A DNA stretch of 64,000 bases from a virus (taxonomy: Duplodnaviria > Caudoviricetes), in the IMG/VR virus record IMGVR_UViG_3300010352_001202. One strand, given 5' to 3'. Shown one piece after another: positions 1,822 to 14,546 of the stretch. The stretch's first letter is position 1. Each line of letters begins with the position of its first letter. The notes under the pieces are model-generated. The model saw only the letters and a program-made list of their open reading frames with translations. It was not told the origin of the DNA and did not search any database. Both the position numbers and the translations under genes were made by a program.

Positions 1822-1850
1822 TTGACACATTGCATGACCGCATGCATAAT
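1822..1850 (+). promoter_or_regulatory. sigma70-type promoter for rIIA-rIIB
   Basis: TTGACA-17 nt-CATAAT. Confidence 0.75.
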
Positions 1851-1882
1851 TGTTAGACAATAAACACAGGAAAACAACAACA

Positions 1883-4051
1883 ATGAAGCTAGATGTCGAA
1901 GTCAACGAAGTAGTATTATCGAATGTGGGAACAACGGGCGAGTTCCGTATTCGTAATTCCGCCAAGGCGTTTAAGATTCTTTCTGACGGCCTATATTCGA
2001 ACAAGATCCGCGCAGTCATTCGCGAACTATCGTGCAACGCATTGGATAGCCATGTAGGCGCCGGCAAAGCAGAAGTTCCGTTTGAAGTACATCTCCCGAC
2101 AATGCTTGAACCGTGGTTTGCGGTAAGAGACTTTGGTTTGGGCCTGGACAACGATCAAGTTGTCAATATCTACACCACCTATTTTGAATCTACCAAGACT
2201 GATTCCAATGCATTCATTGGCGCCCTTGGTTTAGGTTCAAAGTCCCCATTCAGCTACACAGAAAACTTTACTGTTACTGCCATCAAGAATGGAACCAAGC
2301 GCATCTACAGCGCATTTATTAACGACCACGGTGTTCCGTCCATTGCAGAAATGGGCGAAGAACTTACAGACGAAGGAAACGGCGTCGAAGTAAAGTTCAG
2401 CGTTACCGATCGTAGCGATTATAATTCCTTCCGCAACGAAGCACACACGGTGCTGAAGTGGTTTGAACATAAGCCAATCATCACAGGCGTTGAGGGCTTC
2501 CAGCACGGTAAGATTACCTACAAGGATAAGGACATTGTCCCGGGTGTTCATACACGCGGAGAAAACGAAGATTATTACAATCGTGGTAGCTTTGCTATCA
2601 TGGGAAATATTCCGTATCCGTTGAACTATGTTCCGGATGCACAAAAGCACTTCGGCGAACTTGCCAGCCTACTTGATTGTAATCTGGTCCTGGAATTTGA
2701 CATTGGCGAACTTGACTTTGCTGCATCCAGAGAACAGCTTAGTTATATTCCACTCACTATTGCAAGTATCAAACGGAAGCTTGAGCTTCTGAATGCCAAC
2801 CTTGCAAAGCACATTGCGAAAAGTGCAGATGTAATTGAATGTGAATGGAAAAGAGCAGAATACCTTAGAGAGCAGGCACAATCACGGTTGTTCCGCGCAG
2901 CCGTAATTCGTTATGTCACAGATTCGAAGTTTGAGTTGTTTGATGCGTCTAACCATTATGGCAGAAAAGAATTCAAATATCTTACCGCGAAGCTTGCAGA
3001 GCGTGGATTGACCATTACTGCATTCAGCACATATGGTAACGGTTCTACAACGAAGCACAGCGAGAGCCACGAATACACTAACAAGCCTAACGCTACCGGC
3101 GGCCATGAATATATTGGATTTTGGAGCATTCCGGTCGACATGAAGGTAGTTATTGTGCAAAACGATCTGAAAACTGGTTGCCAAGCCAGGGCCAGATATC
3201 ACTTTGCAAATCATTACGGAAAGCAGGCTAGCGTTTTCTGCATCACGCATAGCAGCGACGATCTTGAAGTAAGGCAAGCAGAATATGACTTGCTGATGAA
3301 AGAACTTCACAATCCACCGGTAATCATGAAGGCTAGCGAGCTCGAGAAGAAAGAGCGCGCAAAGCCAATGTCTAGCACAGGCATTGTGGAAATTGGAATC
3401 AAGGCTAACGAACGCGCCGGCCACTCTGGTGCATACATGTGGAGACCGTATCGCGAAGAACTCGACGATAATGTGACCTACTATTATGTTACACTGAATA
3501 ACTGTGATCCTATTGATCAGGAAGGTAACGGCATCAATGTGTTCAACCTGAAGGCGCAGATGGACGAGTGCGGCATTGCAGGAATTCAGAATATCAGAAT
3601 TCTCGGTGTGCGCAAAAATCGAATCAAAGAACTGCAAGATCTGGACAACTGGGTTTGGTTTGAGGATAAGTTGAAAGAAGAAACAGCGAAAATTTCTGAT
3701 GCCCATGTAGCAACACTGGTTGCCGCGGAAATGCTTGATTCTTATTACAATAAAGTGCATACTACGCAAACGATTGCAAATCTTGCAGGACCAGATTCGC
3801 ACTATGCTAAATATGTTAAGGAATATAGTAGCATAAAACGGGCAACCGGTAATGCAACAGCACTCATGACACTTTGCGGTGCCTATGGCAAAGCAGTAGA
3901 AGTGGATAAGGTGAAAAAGAGATTCGAAGATGCTAAGGCAAAGTTGTATGCTACATACCCTTTGCTGAAACATGTACAGACAAACGCGCCTGATATTGTT
4001 GTGGCGCAATACATTAAAATGGTAGACAAACAGGAGAAAGAGAATGAGTAA
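1883..4051 (+). CDS. rIIA: rIIA protein (N-terminal GHKL/HSP90-like ATPase)
   Basis: LYSNKIRAVIRELSCNALDSH, VRDFGLGL, STK..SN..IGALGLGSKSPF; followed by rIIB. Confidence 0.9.
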   Translation: MKLDVEVNEVVLSNVGTTGEFRIRNSAKAFKILSDGLYSNKIRAVIRELSCNALDSHVGAGKAEVPFEVHLPTMLEPWFAVRDFGLGLDNDQVVNIYTTYFESTKTDSNAFIGALGLGSKSPFSYTENFTVTAIKNGTKRIYSAFINDHGVPSIAEMGEELTDEGNGVEVKFSVTDRSDYNSFRNEAHTVLKWFEHKPIITGVEGFQHGKITYKDKDIVPGVHTRGENEDYYNRGSFAIMGNIPYPLNYVPDAQKHFGELASLLDCNLVLEFDIGELDFAASREQLSYIPLTIASIKRKLELLNANLAKHIAKSADVIECEWKRAEYLREQAQSRLFRAAVIRYVTDSKFELFDASNHYGRKEFKYLTAKLAERGLTITAFSTYGNGSTTKHSESHEYTNKPNATGGHEYIGFWSIPVDMKVVIVQNDLKTGCQARARYHFANHYGKQASVFCITHSSDDLEVRQAEYDLLMKELHNPPVIMKASELEKKERAKPMSSTGIVEIGIKANERAGHSGAYMWRPYREELDDNVTYYYVTLNNCDPIDQEGNGINVFNLKAQMDECGIAGIQNIRILGVRKNRIKELQDLDNWVWFEDKLKEETAKISDAHVATLVAAEMLDSYYNKVHTTQTIANLAGPDSHYAKYVKEYSSIKRATGNATALMTLCGAYGKAVEVDKVKKRFEDAKAKLYATYPLLKHVQTNAPDIVVAQYIKMVDKQEKENE

Positions 4052-5069
4052 AGCAGTCCCGTATCTGATCCAAGGCAAGAATATTATCCTTGTGATCAAT
4101 GGCAAAAGTCACACAATTTCCAAGGACACACATATTGCCTACGGCAAGATTGTCGACGCTCTAAAGGCGCAGGATTGGGAAGAGTTGCATAACCTTGTCG
4201 AGCCAGCAAAGGCCATTGTTGATTTTGGCAATGGCAATGTATCGATCGAAGGAAACAAGGTATTCTGGAAAGGCCAGCCGTTCCACAACAGTCTTGCCTC
4301 GCGTATGATTGAAATGTACCAAGACGGATTTCCGATTGACCCGATGGTTCGCTTCATGGAAAACTTGATGGACAACCCATCTAAGCGTTCTGTGGACCAA
4401 GTGTACGGCTTCCTGGAAAAGAACAAGCTTCCAATTACGGAAGATGGTTATTTCCTTGCGTACAAGCGTGTTCGCAGCGATTACAAGGACATTCACTCCG
4501 GCACTATTGATAACAGTGTTGGACAAATTGTCGAGATGGATCGTAATCTGGTCGATGACAATCCGGAATCGCATTGCTCTACCGGTCTTCACTTCTGCAG
4601 CGAAAGCTACCTTGGTGAATTTGGCAGCGCATCGCAGCCTGTCATGATCCTGAAAATTAGCCCTGCTGATGTCGTTAGCATTCCTACCGACTACAACGGT
4701 GCTAAGGGTCGTTGCATGCGATACGAAGTGGTTGCACAAGTCAATGGTAAGCCTGCTGATGCGTTCAGTGCTGTAGTGAATAACGACTATTCGCCGAAGC
4801 CTGCTGCTAAGGTTCCGGAACACAAGACATTGAACCCTGCTGCTGCGTGGCCTTTCGCGACCGGTGCCAATGCTCCTATTGTGGAGACTTTGAGTCCTAC
4901 TCCACGAAAGACTGCACAGTTGTATGACCTGGTTCGTGTTTTTGGCGACTGGGAAGAATATACCGGACTTACGCTCGACGAAGCCCGCGAGCAGAAGGAT
5001 CGTAATGCAAGGCAGAAGAAGGCCCAATTGAAGATTGTTGAAGCTGGCACAAGGAAAGAAGTCCAGTAA
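4044..5069 (+). CDS. rIIB: rIIB protein with C-terminal extension
   Basis: FMENLMDNPS, LPITEDGYFLAYKRV, CSTGLHFCS, P.DVVSIP.DY...KGRC.RYEVV. Confidence 0.9.
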   Translation: MSKAVPYLIQGKNIILVINGKSHTISKDTHIAYGKIVDALKAQDWEELHNLVEPAKAIVDFGNGNVSIEGNKVFWKGQPFHNSLASRMIEMYQDGFPIDPMVRFMENLMDNPSKRSVDQVYGFLEKNKLPITEDGYFLAYKRVRSDYKDIHSGTIDNSVGQIVEMDRNLVDDNPESHCSTGLHFCSESYLGEFGSASQPVMILKISPADVVSIPTDYNGAKGRCMRYEVVAQVNGKPADAFSAVVNNDYSPKPAAKVPEHKTLNPAAAWPFATGANAPIVETLSPTPRKTAQLYDLVRVFGDWEEYTGLTLDEAREQKDRNARQKKAQLKIVEAGTRKEVQ

Positions 5070-5074
5070 GGTTT

Positions 5075-5262
5075 AGTGTGTGGTTTTGTAGGGCCGGTTG
5101 AGTACCTGCGGTCAAGAAATAGCGCCTCTGGATTTATAGCCGTATACGGCTACCATGTGTCTACTAAGGGCGGCCCGGCACTTTCTTCTACAGAAGGAAT
5201 GTAACCGCGGGGGATCCTAAACGCAGGACGGGGAACTTAGGTGGGGAACCTGAGTACACACT
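5075..5262 (+). ncRNA. Large structured RNA with multistem junction and pseudoknot, candidate manA-type motif
   Basis: Closing helix AGTGTGTG 5075-82/TACACACT 5255-62; CCTGCGGT/ACCGCGGG; CGCCT/GGGCG; hairpins TAGCCG-TATA-CGGCTA, TTCTTC-TACA-GAAGGA, TCCT/AGGA and CTTAGGT/ACCTGAG; crossing GCCGG/CCGGC. The family name is from recall only. Confidence 0.65.
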
Positions 5263-5266
5263 TTGG

Positions 5267-5297
5267 ATGGTAGTGGGGCAACTCACTACCATTTTTT
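5267..5297 (+). terminator. Intrinsic terminator / possible attenuator upstream of ugd
   Basis: ATGGTAGTGGG-GCAA-CTCACTACCAT followed by a T-run. Confidence 0.8.
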
Positions 5298-5311
5298 ACG
5301 GAGAAAAAGAA

Positions 5312-6166
5312 ATGTTAAAATTAGGTTTTATAGGATACGGGTTTGTAGGCAAAGCATGTCATTATGCCTTCAAATATAATTCCGAAGCTACAGTGGTTGA
5401 TCCCAAGCATACTCATCTTTCAGTTGCAGAGTTGGTAGATATAAATCCGCATGCTATCTTTGTGTCTATAAATGCGCCTACACTTGATGACAGAACAGTG
5501 GATGCATCTGTAATTTACACGATTTTTAGTCAATTAGTACAGGCAAAGTATGCGGGCATAGTCGTGCTAAAGAGCACATTGCCACCTGAAATAGTAGACG
5601 ATTTATATGTGAAATATGGCCATTCTAAAGTAATGGAAAAGCAGGGACCGTTGCGCTATGTATATTCACCAGAATTCTTAAGAGAAGATCATTGGGAAGA
5701 AGATGCAGTAAATCCACGAATGATTATTCTTGCTGGAGATTGGCATGATTGTAAAGAAGTACAACTCATGTATGAAAGACATTCGCATGTAAAGCATCCA
5801 AAATTTCGATTTGTTGATTATAAAGAAGCAGCATTATTGAAATACACAATCAATGCTTTTTTGGCAAGCAAGGTTGTATTCATGAATCAGATATATCAAC
5901 TTTATAGTGATATACATGGTGGAGGAAAAATACATCCGGAATCATGGGACGATTTTATTCAGATATTGGGCGATGATTATCGTTTAGGATCTAGTCATAT
6001 GGCTGTTCCGGGAAACGACGGACAGTTCGGATACGGTGGTTCGTGCTTTCCAAAAGATGTAAAAGCAATGATCGGATTTGATAAGAATGAGAGATTGACT
6101 GTTCTGCGCGAATCCGAATTAGCCAATACGAAAATTAGGTTGACCGGCGACATAGATCCCGACTAA
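5312..6166 (+). CDS. ugd: UDP-glucose/GDP-mannose dehydrogenase family protein
   Basis: GFIGYGFVG Rossmann motif, VLKSTLPP, YSPEFLRE, KY.INAFLASKV.FMN, catalytic GYGGSCFPKD; GGAG SD. Confidence 0.88.
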   Translation: MLKLGFIGYGFVGKACHYAFKYNSEATVVDPKHTHLSVAELVDINPHAIFVSINAPTLDDRTVDASVIYTIFSQLVQAKYAGIVVLKSTLPPEIVDDLYVKYGHSKVMEKQGPLRYVYSPEFLREDHWEEDAVNPRMIILAGDWHDCKEVQLMYERHSHVKHPKFRFVDYKEAALLKYTINAFLASKVVFMNQIYQLYSDIHGGGKIHPESWDDFIQILGDDYRLGSSHMAVPGNDGQFGYGGSCFPKDVKAMIGFDKNERLTVLRESELANTKIRLTGDIDPD

Positions 6167-6174: not shown

Positions 6175-6630
6175 ATGATTAATATTCCTGAAATCAAAAG
6201 AATAATGGCAAATCTTGCCAGAGCAAAGAATGACCCATTGCTCGAATTCGTTATGAATGGCGAACCCGATGCGCTCGAGTTGGAAAGAATTCGCGACGAA
6301 AATCTTCAGCTTTTATTTACAATCACTCGTAAATATAGGGTAAGATACATCTATATTGACAAGACTGAAATCTGCGGTTGCGAAAGTAAGAATGATAACG
6401 GTGGCACTTGGCCTGCGATGTGGGCGATTGCCAAGGCTGTTGGATTTCCTGCTTCCTGCGGAAATCACGATCAATATCAGTGCCACAATTGTGGTATTGT
6501 ATTTCCTAAAGATTCTTACGGAGCATGGGACCTGAAGGAAAAAAGAAAGCTTTCCGATGATGAAGCCGAAAAGTTGAAGTTTCATAGAGTAGCTCATCAT
6601 TTTAGAAGGCAGGATAAGGAGTACGCATGA
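6175..6630 (+). CDS. Hypothetical Cys-containing protein
   Basis: 151-aa ORF coupled to the next gene by an ATGA overlap. Confidence 0.65.
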   Translation: MINIPEIKRIMANLARAKNDPLLEFVMNGEPDALELERIRDENLQLLFTITRKYRVRYIYIDKTEICGCESKNDNGGTWPAMWAIAKAVGFPASCGNHDQYQCHNCGIVFPKDSYGAWDLKEKRKLSDDEAEKLKFHRVAHHFRRQDKEYA

Positions 6631-7001
6631 AATATTTGTTTATCGATGATGAAAGAATGCCAAAGGATGTTACCTGGGTTCTTATTGGTAATGTAGGAAG
6701 CTGGGGTGCGGATTGGGCAATCGTGCGTTCTCTTGAAGAAGCAATTACATGGGTGCTCGACAACGGATTTCCTGATGTGATTAGCTTTGACCACGATTTG
6801 GGAGAAGCGCACTATGCTATGGATTATTCCGATGGTAAAACTGGGTATGATTTTGCCCTGTGGTTGACTGAGCACGATATGGATACAAATACCATGCCGG
6901 AAAACTTCAGCTTCACAGTTCACAGTAAAAACCCTGTGGGCGGGGCCAATATCCAATCACTGCTAAATAACTATATACGGGTAAAGAAGGAAAGAAAATG
7001 A
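6627..7001 (+). CDS. Cyclic-phosphate-processing receiver-like domain protein
   Basis: LFIDDER.P, VRS, ISFDHDLG, KTGYD, VHS.NPVG motifs. Confidence 0.75.
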   Translation: MKYLFIDDERMPKDVTWVLIGNVGSWGADWAIVRSLEEAITWVLDNGFPDVISFDHDLGEAHYAMDYSDGKTGYDFALWLTEHDMDTNTMPENFSFTVHSKNPVGGANIQSLLNNYIRVKKERK

Positions 7002-8962: not shown

Positions 8963-9736
8963 ATGATACACGATAGGCAAGTTATATTAGGTGATAGTAT
9001 AAAAGATATAGATGATAAGAATAGCCAATTGCATAGACTGAAATTGCAGTGCGATGAATGTAATTTAATTTATGGAACAACAGTAGGAAACTGGAAAAAA
9101 AGAAAATCTAAAAATCCAGAATCTTTAGACCTATGCAAATTTTGCCTGAAGAAAGGCGCCCGCAATCCATCATTTGGTAAAGACAGATCAGATGTTATGA
9201 AATATGCCAGGCAATTTCAAAAAATAAATGGAATGTCAGGTAGACACCACTCCGCTGAGACACGAGCATTACAATCTAAGAGTAAGGTAGATTTAATAGC
9301 AGATGGAAAGTTTAATATAAAAAGTTGTAATAGAGGTAGAAAAGCTTATTATGTTTCTACTAAATCTAATACACAATTTCATGCAGACTCTATCTTAGAA
9401 TTAGCAAGAATGATTGAACTAGATAATGATGTAAATGTTGTATCTTGGACAAAATATCACAGAATACGAATACCTTATGTATTCGAAGGTACGAATCATA
9501 ACTATGTTCCTGATTTTTTAATAGAATTTAAGTCTGGTGAAAAAACAATTGAAGAAGTAAAAGGCAGGATTATTCCGCGTGATTTAGAAAAACAAAATGC
9601 CTGCAAGAAATATTGCATTGAAAATAAGTATCTGTATAAAATGTTTACAGGAAAAGATTTGCAGGATATAAAAATGTATAAACAATTATTAAAGGAATCT
9701 AAACATGCTTCTCTTCCTGGACACCGAATTCACTGA
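8963..9736 (+). CDS. Homing-endonuclease-like protein: NUMOD3-like motifs plus TnsA-type PD-(D/E)XK nuclease
   Basis: NPSFGK, GMSGRHHSAETR, DS.LE, IPY......YVPDFLIE...IEEVKG; AT-rich; GATAAATA at 8934. Confidence 0.75.
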   Translation: MIHDRQVILGDSIKDIDDKNSQLHRLKLQCDECNLIYGTTVGNWKKRKSKNPESLDLCKFCLKKGARNPSFGKDRSDVMKYARQFQKINGMSGRHHSAETRALQSKSKVDLIADGKFNIKSCNRGRKAYYVSTKSNTQFHADSILELARMIELDNDVNVVSWTKYHRIRIPYVFEGTNHNYVPDFLIEFKSGEKTIEEVKGRIIPRDLEKQNACKKYCIENKYLYKMFTGKDLQDIKMYKQLLKESKHASLPGHRIH

Positions 9737-11750: not shown

Positions 11751-14546
11751 ATGGCTATTCTAGTATCACCAGGCGTAAGTATTTCGGTCATCGACCAGAG
11801 CATTAATGTTGGTGCCGGTCCAGGTACAGTACCGTTAATCTTTATCGCCACACAACAAGATAAGACTGTTCCGGATGGTTCGGAAGTAGCAGTAGGAACA
11901 ACAAAGGCCAATGCTGGAAAAGTTTGGTCTATCACTTCGCAGCGCGATTTGGTACAGACTTTCGGTGATCCTGTCTTCTATGAAGTTAGCGGAACATCCC
12001 TAAATGGTTATCCACTAAACGAATACGGTTTGCTTGCAGCATACTCGTATCTCGGTATTGCTAACCTAGCAAGAGTTGTCCGTTGCGATATCAATACAGT
12101 TCAATTACAACCAACACCAATTCAGCCAACAAGTCCTGCAGCAGCGGGAACATTCTGGTTTGATGAATCAGCATTACCAAACGGTTCTGCTTATGGTTTG
12201 TTTATTCGTTCTGGCACTTTCCCAAATGAAATTTGGACTGTTGTAGCACCGGATTTCATCTATAACTTTGCAACAGGTGTAGCAAACGCTCCAACACCAA
12301 CAGACGGTGTTGACGGAGACCACGCAGTTGTATTCCAGACAGCATCGGGAACATTATCGTTCTGGAGAAAAGTTGGATCTACATGGTCGCAGATTGGTGC
12401 CCGTGCAGCTCAAGTAACTGCTTCGGCCCCATCAGTGGGTGCATTAATTAATGTTGCATCGACAGTAGGCTTAGAAGTTGGTATGGTTCCAGTAGTTGGT
12501 TCCGGTACTGGTGTTTTCGCAGCTAATACAACTATTACTCAAATCAACAATGCAACATCGTTTACTGTTTCTGCAGTACCATCAACACCGTTTGCGGCTG
12601 CTGATGTAATTAATGCATCGTTTGAAGTTGTTATCAACTCTGTATGGCCGGACCTTACATCGACATCGACAACACAAGAATATTGGCTAAAGACATCCTC
12701 AGCAGCGCAAGGTGCAAATCTTGTTCTACGCAGAATGGATACAACACTTGCTCAGTTCTTGCAAGTTGAAGCTCCAATTCTTACAAATGATGCAGCAGCC
12801 AATACATATTACAGCACAAATCCTGCAGGATCGGATGGCCAGATTTACATTGAGCCAGTCCAGTCGGGTTTAAATCCTACTTCTGCACCGAACTCATACG
12901 AGTTTAGAAAGGCAACTGGCGCATCTGGTCCATGGGCTCCATTACAAGTCATTCAAGGTTCTGTAACAGTTCCAACATCTGGCCCAGAAAACGGTCAGCT
13001 ATGGTTCAATTCAGAGCTTGGCGTTGATAGCAACGGTGAAATCACTGTTGATATGTTAATGGCTGATGGAACAGGCGGATGGCAGAATGTATGGCTAGAT
13101 GGTTGGACAGCGTTCAATACAGCAGCAGTTCTACCAGGCGCAATTAAGGTATATGCACAATCTGCAGATCCACGCGACGATGTACCGCCAAAGGTTCTAT
13201 CGTCAGGCGATGTATGGGTTGATACAGATGTAAATCCGTATCCTGTTATTAAGCGTTGGTCGGGTACAGCATGGATTCTAGTCGACAATACAGACCAGAC
13301 AACTCCAAACGGTATCATCTTCACAGATGCTCGTCCAAATCCAGAATATCACATGGGTACATACTCGGGCGAAAATAACGGTAGTGGTATCAATCCTGAC
13401 TTAGACCCAGATGCACCAGATTCGGACTTGTATCCAAAGGGATTCTTACTATGGAATACTCGTTACTCGACAAACAATGTCAAGGAATGGAATTCACCAT
13501 ATGTAGCTAACGGCGTTCCTGCTGAACCAGATAACACAAACAATGGCTCATTGGGTCGTTGGGTAACAACTTCTGGTAATAACCCAGGTGGCGCACCGTA
13601 CATGGGTGCAGCAGCACAGAATATCTGTATCGTTCGTGCAATCCAGGCAGTTATTACAGCCAACGAAGATATTCGCGCAGAAGATCTATACTATAACTTG
13701 ATTGCTGCCCCGGGATATGTTGAAGCTATTGATGAAATGCTTGTATTGAATGAAGACCGTAAGCAGACAGCTTTTGTTGTCGGCGACACTCCATTCACAC
13801 TAGCAGCCAACGGAACTTCGCTACAGAATTGGGCAACCAACAAGAGCGTTGCATACGGTAACGGTGCTGATGGCCTAGTATCGGCAAGTAAGTATTTTGC
13901 TGCATGGTATCCAAGCGGATTGTCGACCAATGTTGACGGAACTGATGTAGTTGTTCCACCATCACACATGGCTCTAAGAACAATTGCTTACAACGACCAG
14001 GTTGCTTATCCTTGGTTTGCTCCAGCTGGTTTACAACGCGGTATTGTCAACAATGCAGCAGCAGTTGGTTATGTCAATGTCGAAGGACAGTTTATTACTG
14101 TTAAGTTGAATGAAGGTCAAAGAGACATTCTTTACATCAACGGTATTAACCCAATTCGTGTAATGCCACAAGGCGGTATTGTTGTGTTCGGTCAAAAGAC
14201 ACGCCAACCATACGCAAGTGCAACAGACCGTATCAATGTAGTTCGTTTAGAAAATTACTTGCGCTACCAGTTGAACTTACTTGCTCAGCCGTTCCTATTC
14301 GAGCCTAACGATACAACAACTCGTAAGGCAGTTAAGGATGCATTTGATAGATTCATGTCAGAACTTATCACATTGCGTGCTCTATACGACTTCTTAGTTG
14401 TTTGCGATCTTACAAACAACACACCAGCTCGTATCGACAGAAACGAACTTTGGATTGATATTGCAATTCAGCCAGTTAAGGCAATTGAATTTATTTACAT
14501 TCCAATCAGAATCAAGAACACAGGCGCCAGCTTATCGGCACCTTGA
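11751..14546 (+). CDS. Contractile tail sheath protein (gp18-like)
   Basis: LVSPGVSISVIDQS N-terminus; YPWFAPAG..RG, RDILY..GINPI, DRINV.RL, FEPND, CD.TNNTP..IDRNEL..DIAIQP.KA.EFIY. Confidence 0.95.
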   Translation: MAILVSPGVSISVIDQSINVGAGPGTVPLIFIATQQDKTVPDGSEVAVGTTKANAGKVWSITSQRDLVQTFGDPVFYEVSGTSLNGYPLNEYGLLAAYSYLGIANLARVVRCDINTVQLQPTPIQPTSPAAAGTFWFDESALPNGSAYGLFIRSGTFPNEIWTVVAPDFIYNFATGVANAPTPTDGVDGDHAVVFQTASGTLSFWRKVGSTWSQIGARAAQVTASAPSVGALINVASTVGLEVGMVPVVGSGTGVFAANTTITQINNATSFTVSAVPSTPFAAADVINASFEVVINSVWPDLTSTSTTQEYWLKTSSAAQGANLVLRRMDTTLAQFLQVEAPILTNDAAANTYYSTNPAGSDGQIYIEPVQSGLNPTSAPNSYEFRKATGASGPWAPLQVIQGSVTVPTSGPENGQLWFNSELGVDSNGEITVDMLMADGTGGWQNVWLDGWTAFNTAAVLPGAIKVYAQSADPRDDVPPKVLSSGDVWVDTDVNPYPVIKRWSGTAWILVDNTDQTTPNGIIFTDARPNPEYHMGTYSGENNGSGINPDLDPDAPDSDLYPKGFLLWNTRYSTNNVKEWNSPYVANGVPAEPDNTNNGSLGRWVTTSGNNPGGAPYMGAAAQNICIVRAIQAVITANEDIRAEDLYYNLIAAPGYVEAIDEMLVLNEDRKQTAFVVGDTPFTLAANGTSLQNWATNKSVAYGNGADGLVSASKYFAAWYPSGLSTNVDGTDVVVPPSHMALRTIAYNDQVAYPWFAPAGLQRGIVNNAAAVGYVNVEGQFITVKLNEGQRDILYINGINPIRVMPQGGIVVFGQKTRQPYASATDRINVVRLENYLRYQLNLLAQPFLFEPNDTTTRKAVKDAFDRFMSELITLRALYDFLVVCDLTNNTPARIDRNELWIDIAIQPVKAIEFIYIPIRIKNTGASLSAP

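Follow-up and report, generated by a model that had tools for sequence, protein, structure and literature searches.

A new family of structured RNA downstream of the rII genes in uncultured T4-like jumbo phages, with loop sequences that suggest self-association

The DNA analysed here, a stretch of 64,000 nucleotides that we refer to as the window, comes in this region from a T4-related phage (giant, T4-like and uncultured) and contains a gap of 242 nt between rIIB and an ORF related to UDP-glucose dehydrogenases (Ugd-like). No ORF of at least 50 aa lies inside the gap, and the segment 5074-5264 is GC-rich, as a preliminary description of the locus had stated (52% GC, versus about 42% in the flanks). 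That description read the segment as a pseudoknotted RNA, either of the manA type or new, in which a terminator and an internal antiterminator would gate the dehydrogenase gene; as a fallback, it considered a stand-alone non-coding RNA with its own terminator. The locus therefore raises the question of what kind of RNA is encoded here, and whether it serves the gene that follows it or acts on its own. The features of the region, in window coordinates, are as follows.

100-171: tRNA gene (47.3 bits with the Rfam tRNA model), some 1.7 kb before the start of rIIA
1850-4051: rIIA
4044-5069, + strand: rIIB (PHROG RIIB, E 1e-78; blastn matches to annotated rIIB genes, among them that of Xoo-sp13)
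5075-5262, + strand: structured RNA core, about 190 nt, six helices, closed by P1
5265-5297, + strand: intrinsic terminator, hairpin 5265-77/5282-94 (Watson-Crick core 5267-75/5284-92), T6 at 5292-5297, -18.7 kcal/mol
5300-5303 and 5312-6166, + strand: Shine-Dalgarno sequence GGAG and Ugd-like ORF of 284 aa, a neighbour that lies outside the RNA
6175-6630: orf151, an ORF of 151 aa with no family match
6627-7001: gene for cREC (cyclic-phosphate-processing receiver)
8963-9736: free-standing gene of homing-endonuclease type (TnsA-like/NUMOD3)

The stop codon of rIIB occupies positions 5067-5069, and the first base pair of the RNA forms 5-6 nt downstream of it. On the other side, the Ugd-like ORF matches the Pfam family UDPG_MGDP_dh_N and the central domain only (UDP-glucose/GDP-mannose dehydrogenase family; NAD-binding and central domains), and its product aligns to residues ~80-300 of solved enzymes that are 390-495 aa in length. 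The C-terminal UDP-sugar-binding domain is thus missing, and the substrate of this truncated protein is therefore not fixed by the name of its family. The segment 5312-7001, which carries the Ugd-like ORF, orf151 and cREC between the RNA and a further gene, orf387, is an accessory island in which each of the 3 genes is present or absent independently among relatives. Genes that appear GIY-YIG-like when their translations are inspected by eye occur in the same syntenic region of 2 related loci (L047, ~12006-12746; L001, 1-612), and in L047 one gene of homing-endonuclease type directly follows the terminator of the RNA.

Homologs of the RNA were collected from loci recruited through the Ugd-like protein, from 3 pattern scans of IMG/VR and one of JGI metagenomes, and with a covariance model, R1. 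In the loci recruited through the protein, the element was alignable and compensatory changes were already evident. The collection comprises 59 distinct full-length homologs, all of them from contigs of uncultured T4-related jumbo phages (IMG/VR and JGI). Model R1 gave a single match in the 64-kb window (201.8 bits), and it found one copy in each of 3 complete genomes (365-385 kb) and 2 partial genomes. We aligned 27 sequences with MAFFT, without fitting the alignment to any structure, derived a consensus fold with RNAalifold, and judged covariation against 500 column shuffles and against controls in which the 3' partner of each helix was slid out of register. The fold so obtained consists of the following elements, all within the + strand RNA.

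5076-81/5256-61, plus A5075-U5262: P1, 100% paired, double changes at 5 of 6 pairs
5082-86/5091-95: P2 hairpin (5082-85/5092-95 when 5086-5091 is taken as loop L2, UUGUAG), double changes at 4 of 5 pairs
5105-10/5222-27: P3, CCUGCG/CGCAGG here, CCUAUA/UAUAGG and CCUGCA/UGCAGG in homologs
5111-13/5169-71: P3a
5119-5164: P4 arm (5119-25/5157-64, 5129-31/5153-55 and 5137-42/5147-52), covariation in all 3 segments
5143-5146: L4, the UAUA tetraloop at the apex of P4
5175-5208: P5 arm (5175-78/5205-08 and 5180-87/5194-5202), 99.7% paired, 6 pairs with double changes
5188-5193: L5, the CUACAG loop of P5
5209-5234: G-rich joining strands (CGGRGG..., ACGGGGAA) that flank the 3' strand of P3 (5222-27), invariant in the 27 sequences
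5235-42/5248-55: P6 hairpin, 99% paired, with an invariant GGGG loop at 5243-47

Across the 58 base pairs of P1 through P6, 98.9% of the alignment cells are paired and double compensatory changes occur at 37 pairs. None of the 500 column shuffles reached the real alignment on any of 5 measures, and when the 3' partners were slid, pairing fell to 34-48%. We counted 180 G-U cells and 6 A-C cells, an excess which indicates that the molecule that folds is the + strand RNA, and not the DNA or an antisense transcript. There are 54 invariant positions among the 27 sequences, concentrated in the junctions, and the internal region of P5, GCACUU...AAUGUAAC, is likewise invariant. P6 is a tolerated site of expansion, since 8 homologs (L042, L065, L058, L069, L047, L079, L077 and L078) have an insertion of 20-30 nt there, with an extra hairpin, and keep the GGGG sequence.

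Three invariant single-stranded stretches in the RNA are G-rich: CGGRGG at 5207-5213, CGGGGAA at 5229-5235 and the loop GGGGW at 5243-5247. A search of the 27-sequence alignment for a C-rich pairing partner of these strands found none, the strands themselves being invariant. Possibly, they are candidates for a G-quadruplex or form a putative binding site. An all-against-all scan of alignment columns for additional pseudoknots was too noisy to use. The minimum free energy fold of the single sequence (z = -2.1), which pairs CCUGCGG with CCGCGGG, was contradicted by the homologs. We also considered a small ORF starting at AUG/ACG in J5/3 and rejected it, since a stop codon interrupts the frame in L002 and the changes among homologs, judged by eye, are compensatory. 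A comparison by eye with Ro60-like 'docking module' RNAs showed only a superficial likeness in the AG.../...CU closing helix, and no GCAA module.

These results bear unevenly on the fold that had been proposed from the one sequence. Its closing helix, 5075-82/5255-62, was 95% paired in the 27 homologs, with double changes at 6 of 8 pairs, and the local hairpins it called for are present. In contrast, 3 other helices lacked convincing covariation and do not belong to the consensus: 5105-12/5204-11 (75% paired, with 4 pairs that break), 5123-27/5168-72 (76% paired) and the crossing helix 5093-97/5175-79 (69% paired, with one of its pairs found in 1 of 27 sequences). The strands of these helices are instead parts of P3 (5105-10/5222-27), P3a (5111-13/5169-71), P2 (5082-86/5091-95) and P5 (5175-78/5205-08), all of which covary.

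We searched for relationships to RNA families already catalogued. With cmscan against Rfam, the whole window at gathering thresholds yielded the tRNA only, the segment 4950-5450 at E<=10 yielded only 2 chance matches to eukaryotic families, and 5 homolog loci at E<=5 yielded nothing on the element. The assignment to a manA- or wcaG-type RNA is thus not borne out, as no Rfam 15 family matched the element even at E<=10. The alternative that had been offered with it, a new complex RNA, agrees both with this result and with the conservation of the paired positions described above. We conclude that the RNA at 5075-5262 is a previously uncatalogued family, outside manA, wcaG and any other Rfam 15 family. 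The conserved 13-mers of the RNA were not found in the papers searched. A 2023 catalogue of candidate RNAs from IMG/VR holds 8,495 entries with lengths up to 151 nt (PMC10690425), and a fragment of the present RNA might be among its unnamed entries.

A tertiary interaction is visible in the alignment. L2 (5086-91) is complementary to L5 (5188-93) through at least 5 contiguous base pairs in 25 of the 27 sequences, and the two loops switch together, from UUGUAG/CUACAA to UUAUAG/CUAUAA, UGGUAA/UUACCA and UAGUAG/CUACUA. There is also a matched insertion, UUGAUAG/CUAUCAA, in which an extra A in L2 is answered by an extra U in L5. On the raw MAFFT columns the L2-L5 pairing was 94% paired, as compared with 31-63% when slid. 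A covarying loop-loop pairing between L2 and L5 therefore exists, and in this broad sense the RNA is pseudoknotted as had been proposed, although not through the suggested GCCGG/CCGGC crossing helix. The pairing may join the loops of one molecule or, equally, those of two, as covariation is blind to the difference.

A different kind of constraint is apparent at the tip of P4. Of 64 distinct sequences, 63 have an L4 tetraloop that is complementary to itself, with 8 different palindromes among them (UCGA in 30, UGCA in 14, UUAA in 7, GUAC in 4, ACGU in 3, UAUA in 2, CCGG in 2 and CUAG in 1), and the loop varies between RNAs that are 80-86% identical elsewhere. In 19 sequences the pair that closes L4 is a G-U pair, which argues that the constraint acts on pairing by RNA and is not that of a DNA palindrome. 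Neighbouring bases of such a loop are unable to pair with each other inside one hairpin. In the OLE (L9.3) and GOLLD (L21a) RNAs, switching from palindrome to palindrome supported symmetric intermolecular kissing loops (PMC12286853). L4 shows the same behaviour that was relied upon for OLE and GOLLD, namely self-complementarity that is kept while the sequence changes. With RNAcofold, an extended P4 duplex dimer lay 13 kcal/mol below two monomers, a difference expected for any palindromic hairpin and by itself no evidence of dimerisation. For a kissing complex of the classic kind, a loop of 4 nt is small. L4 would be under the same constraint if P4 formed a strand-exchanged duplex. Taken together, the L4 palindromes and the L2-L5 pairing suggest that the RNA associates with itself. 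We put the chance that it dimerises or forms larger species at about even. A more specific proposal, that a two-fold L4-L4' contact and a head-to-tail intermolecular L2-L5' contact would together build a closed RNA-only assembly (a ring or cage) early in infection, is possible, and we hold it with considerable doubt.

The RNA is followed by a strong terminator, which, as had been noted, ends 14 nt before the ATG of the Ugd-like ORF at 5312 and leaves no room for a promoter in this window; only the GGAG at 5300-5303 intervenes. A simple terminator scan of the window did not have the 5265-5297 hairpin in its list. Among homologs with enough downstream sequence, 57 of 58 have a hairpin of -10 kcal/mol or lower followed by a run of at least 4 T residues after the RNA, and the stems are unrelated in sequence, so that the terminator is itself a conserved feature of the unit. 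It starts 2-6 nt past P1 and does not overlap it. The distance from the T-run to the next gene ranges from 9 to ~100 nt. In the window and ~15 relatives the next gene starts 9-14 nt past the T-run, a distance too short for a promoter (~15 of the 35 homologs that adjoin a Ugd-like gene, with only a Shine-Dalgarno sequence between), and such tight spacing is a placement also expected of a cis-acting regulator. In several other relatives, promoter-like sequences lie in the spacer 3' of the terminator: TTGACA-17-TACAAT in L029, GATAAATA in L002 and L003, and GGTATAAT in L047. A conserved spacer of ~55 nt (…AATGTTTACGCC…CTAACGCCACGACTTA…), flanked by an inverted repeat, separates the terminator from the Ugd-like gene in L003 (2902-2960), L008, L013 and L057, and may represent a further small element or contain a promoter.

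The proposed antiterminator consisted of CTACCAT at 5150-56, which is indeed complementary to ATGGTAG at 5267-73 in the 5' arm of the terminator, a match above chance in this window (4 of 200 shuffles equal it). However, the complement is absent from that site in 31 homologs, where the best complements of the terminator arm are 4-7 nt long, lie at varying places and do not exceed those in shuffled sequences; as a feature of the family, the antiterminator falls away. L010 has a terminator stem nearly identical to that of the window, without the CTACCAT partner, and positions 5150-56 are the 3' strand of the covarying helix at the tip of P4.

All homologs occupy the same locus, in which the order is rIIA, rIIB, an optional gene (orf130), the RNA, then the Ugd-like gene, orf151 and cREC, each of them optional, and orf387, followed by an RNase H-like exonuclease and onward to a dNMP kinase and the tail sheath gene. 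The first recognizable gene 3' of the RNA, among 58 homologs that come from one clade and are not independent, is the Ugd-like gene in 35, cREC in 10, orf151 in 8, orf387 in 4 and another gene in 1. Because all loci are syntenic and belong to one clade, gene context offers no independent clue to function. The RNA starts ~0-7 nt past the stop codon of either rIIB or orf130. The latter, of 130 aa, has no Pfam or PHROG family match; where it intervenes (L010, L012, L013, L017, L021 and others), the stop codon of rIIB has after it a short hairpin that is rich in GC and often accompanied by a T-run, and the full RNA stays 3' of orf130. No promoter or other motif upstream of the RNA was found to be shared across the rIIB and orf130 contexts. 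One relative, L095, whose rIIB is 71% identical, has orf130 and then cREC after 33 nt, with neither the RNA nor its terminator (L095 3480-4000). It is a natural deletion or a variant that never acquired the RNA, and the RNA is therefore dispensable.

Beyond this clade the RNA was not detected. A blastn search with the RNA against 50,697 cultured-phage records gave no match, nor did model R1 against PA5oct, Phosso and Xoo-sp13, the cultured jumbo phages that come closest in tail sheath or rIIB; the same search found the RNA in 5 of 5 related viral records. Xoo-sp13 has a gap of only 100 nt after rIIB. A pattern scan of 185,579 prokaryote genomes gave 5 matches, of which none was confirmed by the covariance model, and which we attribute to chance. 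The family is known so far from one uncultured clade of T4-like jumbo phages.

We consider it moderately probable that this is a stand-alone structured RNA which forms the 3' terminus of the rII transcript, is made early and probably associates with itself. The evidence favours, in other words, the fallback reading of the preliminary description, a non-coding RNA with its own terminator, given that the terminator is nearly universal and the next gene is variable. By this account the RNA would be made as the 3'-terminal segment of an early rII transcript, and would either stay attached to it or be cut off; the hairpin and U-tract would simply be its 3' end. It may be a small RNA of the 3'-UTR-derived or terminator-sharing kind, which would have no promoter of its own and a processed 5' end; the RNA abuts a stop codon, and no motif is common to its 2 upstream contexts. 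In T4, the rII genes are early or middle genes, which is why early synthesis is probable. The mature RNA would act in trans as a self-associating particle, in which a symmetric L4-L4' contact, whether a kiss or a strand-exchanged duplex, would give at least a dimer, and L2-L5, if intermolecular, would give higher oligomers. As there is no promoter room before the Ugd-like gene in the window, we infer that this gene must depend on read-through of the terminator, and it would be reached in that way without being gated by the RNA. The transcription, 5' end and abundance of the RNA are here deduced from sequence.

That the RNA might instead be a riboswitch or other cis-acting regulator, whose fold senses a ligand or factor and modulates read-through into the Ugd-like gene, orf151 and cREC, is unlikely in our estimation, and it retains this standing because the fold has the complexity of an aptamer and many copies lie close to the next gene. 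The 54 invariant positions, mostly in junctions, would suit such a function, although they attest to a conserved fold and not to the binding of a ligand; the constant placement of the terminator just past P1, the ~15 homologs with the Shine-Dalgarno sequence alone before the next gene, and the relation of the neighbouring genes to NAD and ADP-ribose all point the same way. Against this, there is no conserved alternative pairing, as L010 illustrates with its nearly unchanged terminator stem and missing CTACCAT, and P1 and the terminator share no nucleotides. Moreover, the downstream gene differs between loci, several relatives have promoter-like spacers after the terminator, and the RNA abuts an upstream stop codon, not a promoter. 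The claim that the RNA gates the dehydrogenase gene is made unlikely by the same observations. A cis-acting role in the other direction, as a 3'-UTR element of the rII message that blocks 3' exonucleases or is linked to the end of translation at the adjoining stop codon, would account for the start of the RNA within ~0-7 nt of that codon in every locus and for its possession of the transcript's terminator. Yet protection of the 3' end would need no more than the terminator hairpin, the full RNA is kept after orf130 even where rIIB receives a simple GC hairpin of its own, and 6 covarying helices with 54 invariant bases far exceed such a need; we regard this role as quite improbable.

The remaining alternatives also have the RNA act as a molecule in its own right. 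A monomeric protein-binding RNA, made early as a scaffold for an RNP or as a decoy for a protein of either host or phage, would use the G-rich junctions as its binding site, and the palindrome would be incidental. The 3 G-rich stretches, which are single-stranded and invariant, are in keeping with this, as are the GCACUU/AAUGUAAC internal loop, likewise invariant, and the location beside rII and a variable accessory island of the type typical of host-conflict genes. It leaves unexplained why 8 different tip sequences should all be self-complementary, and no protein gene that co-varies with the RNA was found; orf130, the Ugd-like gene, orf151 and cREC are each missing from some RNA-bearing loci. 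On balance this proposal seems rather unlikely. We think it very improbable indeed that the RNA is self-cleaving or otherwise catalytic and detaches at its 5' edge from the rII message. Its size and conservation are comparable to those of large ribozymes, the upstream ORF ends where the RNA begins, and a gene for a cyclic-phosphate-processing protein lies nearby; however, the RNA matches no Rfam ribozyme family, and cREC is missing from several loci that have the RNA. The cREC and NAD-type genes are known as parts of jumbo-phage systems for RNA repair and NAD conflict (PMC7824862, PMC9503650). As each of them is missing from some RNA-bearing loci, we claim no functional link between them and the RNA.

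Comparison with known systems brings out both what is shared and what is not. The HIV-1 dimerisation initiation site and the GACG tetraloop hairpins of MoMuLV have self-complementary loops that pair with their twins, with an extended duplex as a further possibility; those are dimerisation signals of retroviral genomes, whereas L4 caps one arm of a small non-coding RNA in a DNA phage. The pRNA of phi29 is the classic phage case in which covarying loops pair between molecules. It is a phage RNA of similar size (RF00044; PMC12990946), whose 2 covarying loops form a ring in this way, and by analogy L2 and L5 could work as its loops do; the present RNA has no homology to it (no Rfam match) and shows no sign of a role in a motor, in contrast to pRNA, which belongs to the packaging motor of small podophages. 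Riboswitches that terminate transcription likewise have a conserved fold, then an intrinsic terminator and then, as in this window, a gene without its own promoter; they differ from the present case, in which there is no conserved antiterminator, P1 and terminator do not overlap, the next gene varies and relatives have promoter-like spacers. The manA RNA (RF01745; cyanophages and Photobacterium), long an orphan riboswitch candidate located upstream of sugar and nucleotide genes, is also phage-borne, ornate, multi-hairpin and under 200 nt. A 2026 preprint (bioRxiv 10.64898/2026.07.01.735769) reports that RNAs of that family, each shorter than 200 nt, assemble by intermolecular kissing loops into decamers and 60-mers made of RNA only. 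OLE, GOLLD and ROOL are homo-oligomers by cryo-EM; OLE and GOLLD have a palindrome-switching loop tetranucleotide such as we describe for L4, and GOLLD and ROOL, like the present RNA, are often associated with phages (PMC12286853). Among known RNAs, it is these ornate orphans that the present one would most resemble in its way of working. Our RNA matches neither manA in sequence or structure (Rfam, E<=10), from which it also differs in helix layout and in that it lies just 3' of a gene and brings its own terminator, nor the OLE, GOLLD and ROOL RNAs, which at 580-800+ nt are far longer than its ~190 nt and unrelated in sequence (no Rfam match); the assembly of our RNA is a prediction.

Phage and bacterial ornate orphan RNAs still pose an open problem, and cryo-EM studies of 2025-26 found several of them, including manA, to be RNA-only assemblies and not riboswitches (PMC12286853; bioRxiv 10.64898/2026.07.01.735769). 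The element described here constitutes a compact new family, independent and very well supported, and our observations correct the tempting but wrong label of a riboswitch gating UDP-glucose dehydrogenase. The alignments A4-A6 and model R1 provide the basis for a new RNA family entry, and L095 is useful as a natural control that does not have the RNA. Two candidate interface elements are legible in the sequence, the palindrome-switching tip and the covarying loop pair with its matched insertions, which makes this compact RNA an inexpensive and directly testable case. If the closed assembly should prove true, an independent family would join the phenomenon seen with manA, ROOL and GOLLD, and its interfaces would be readable from covariation.
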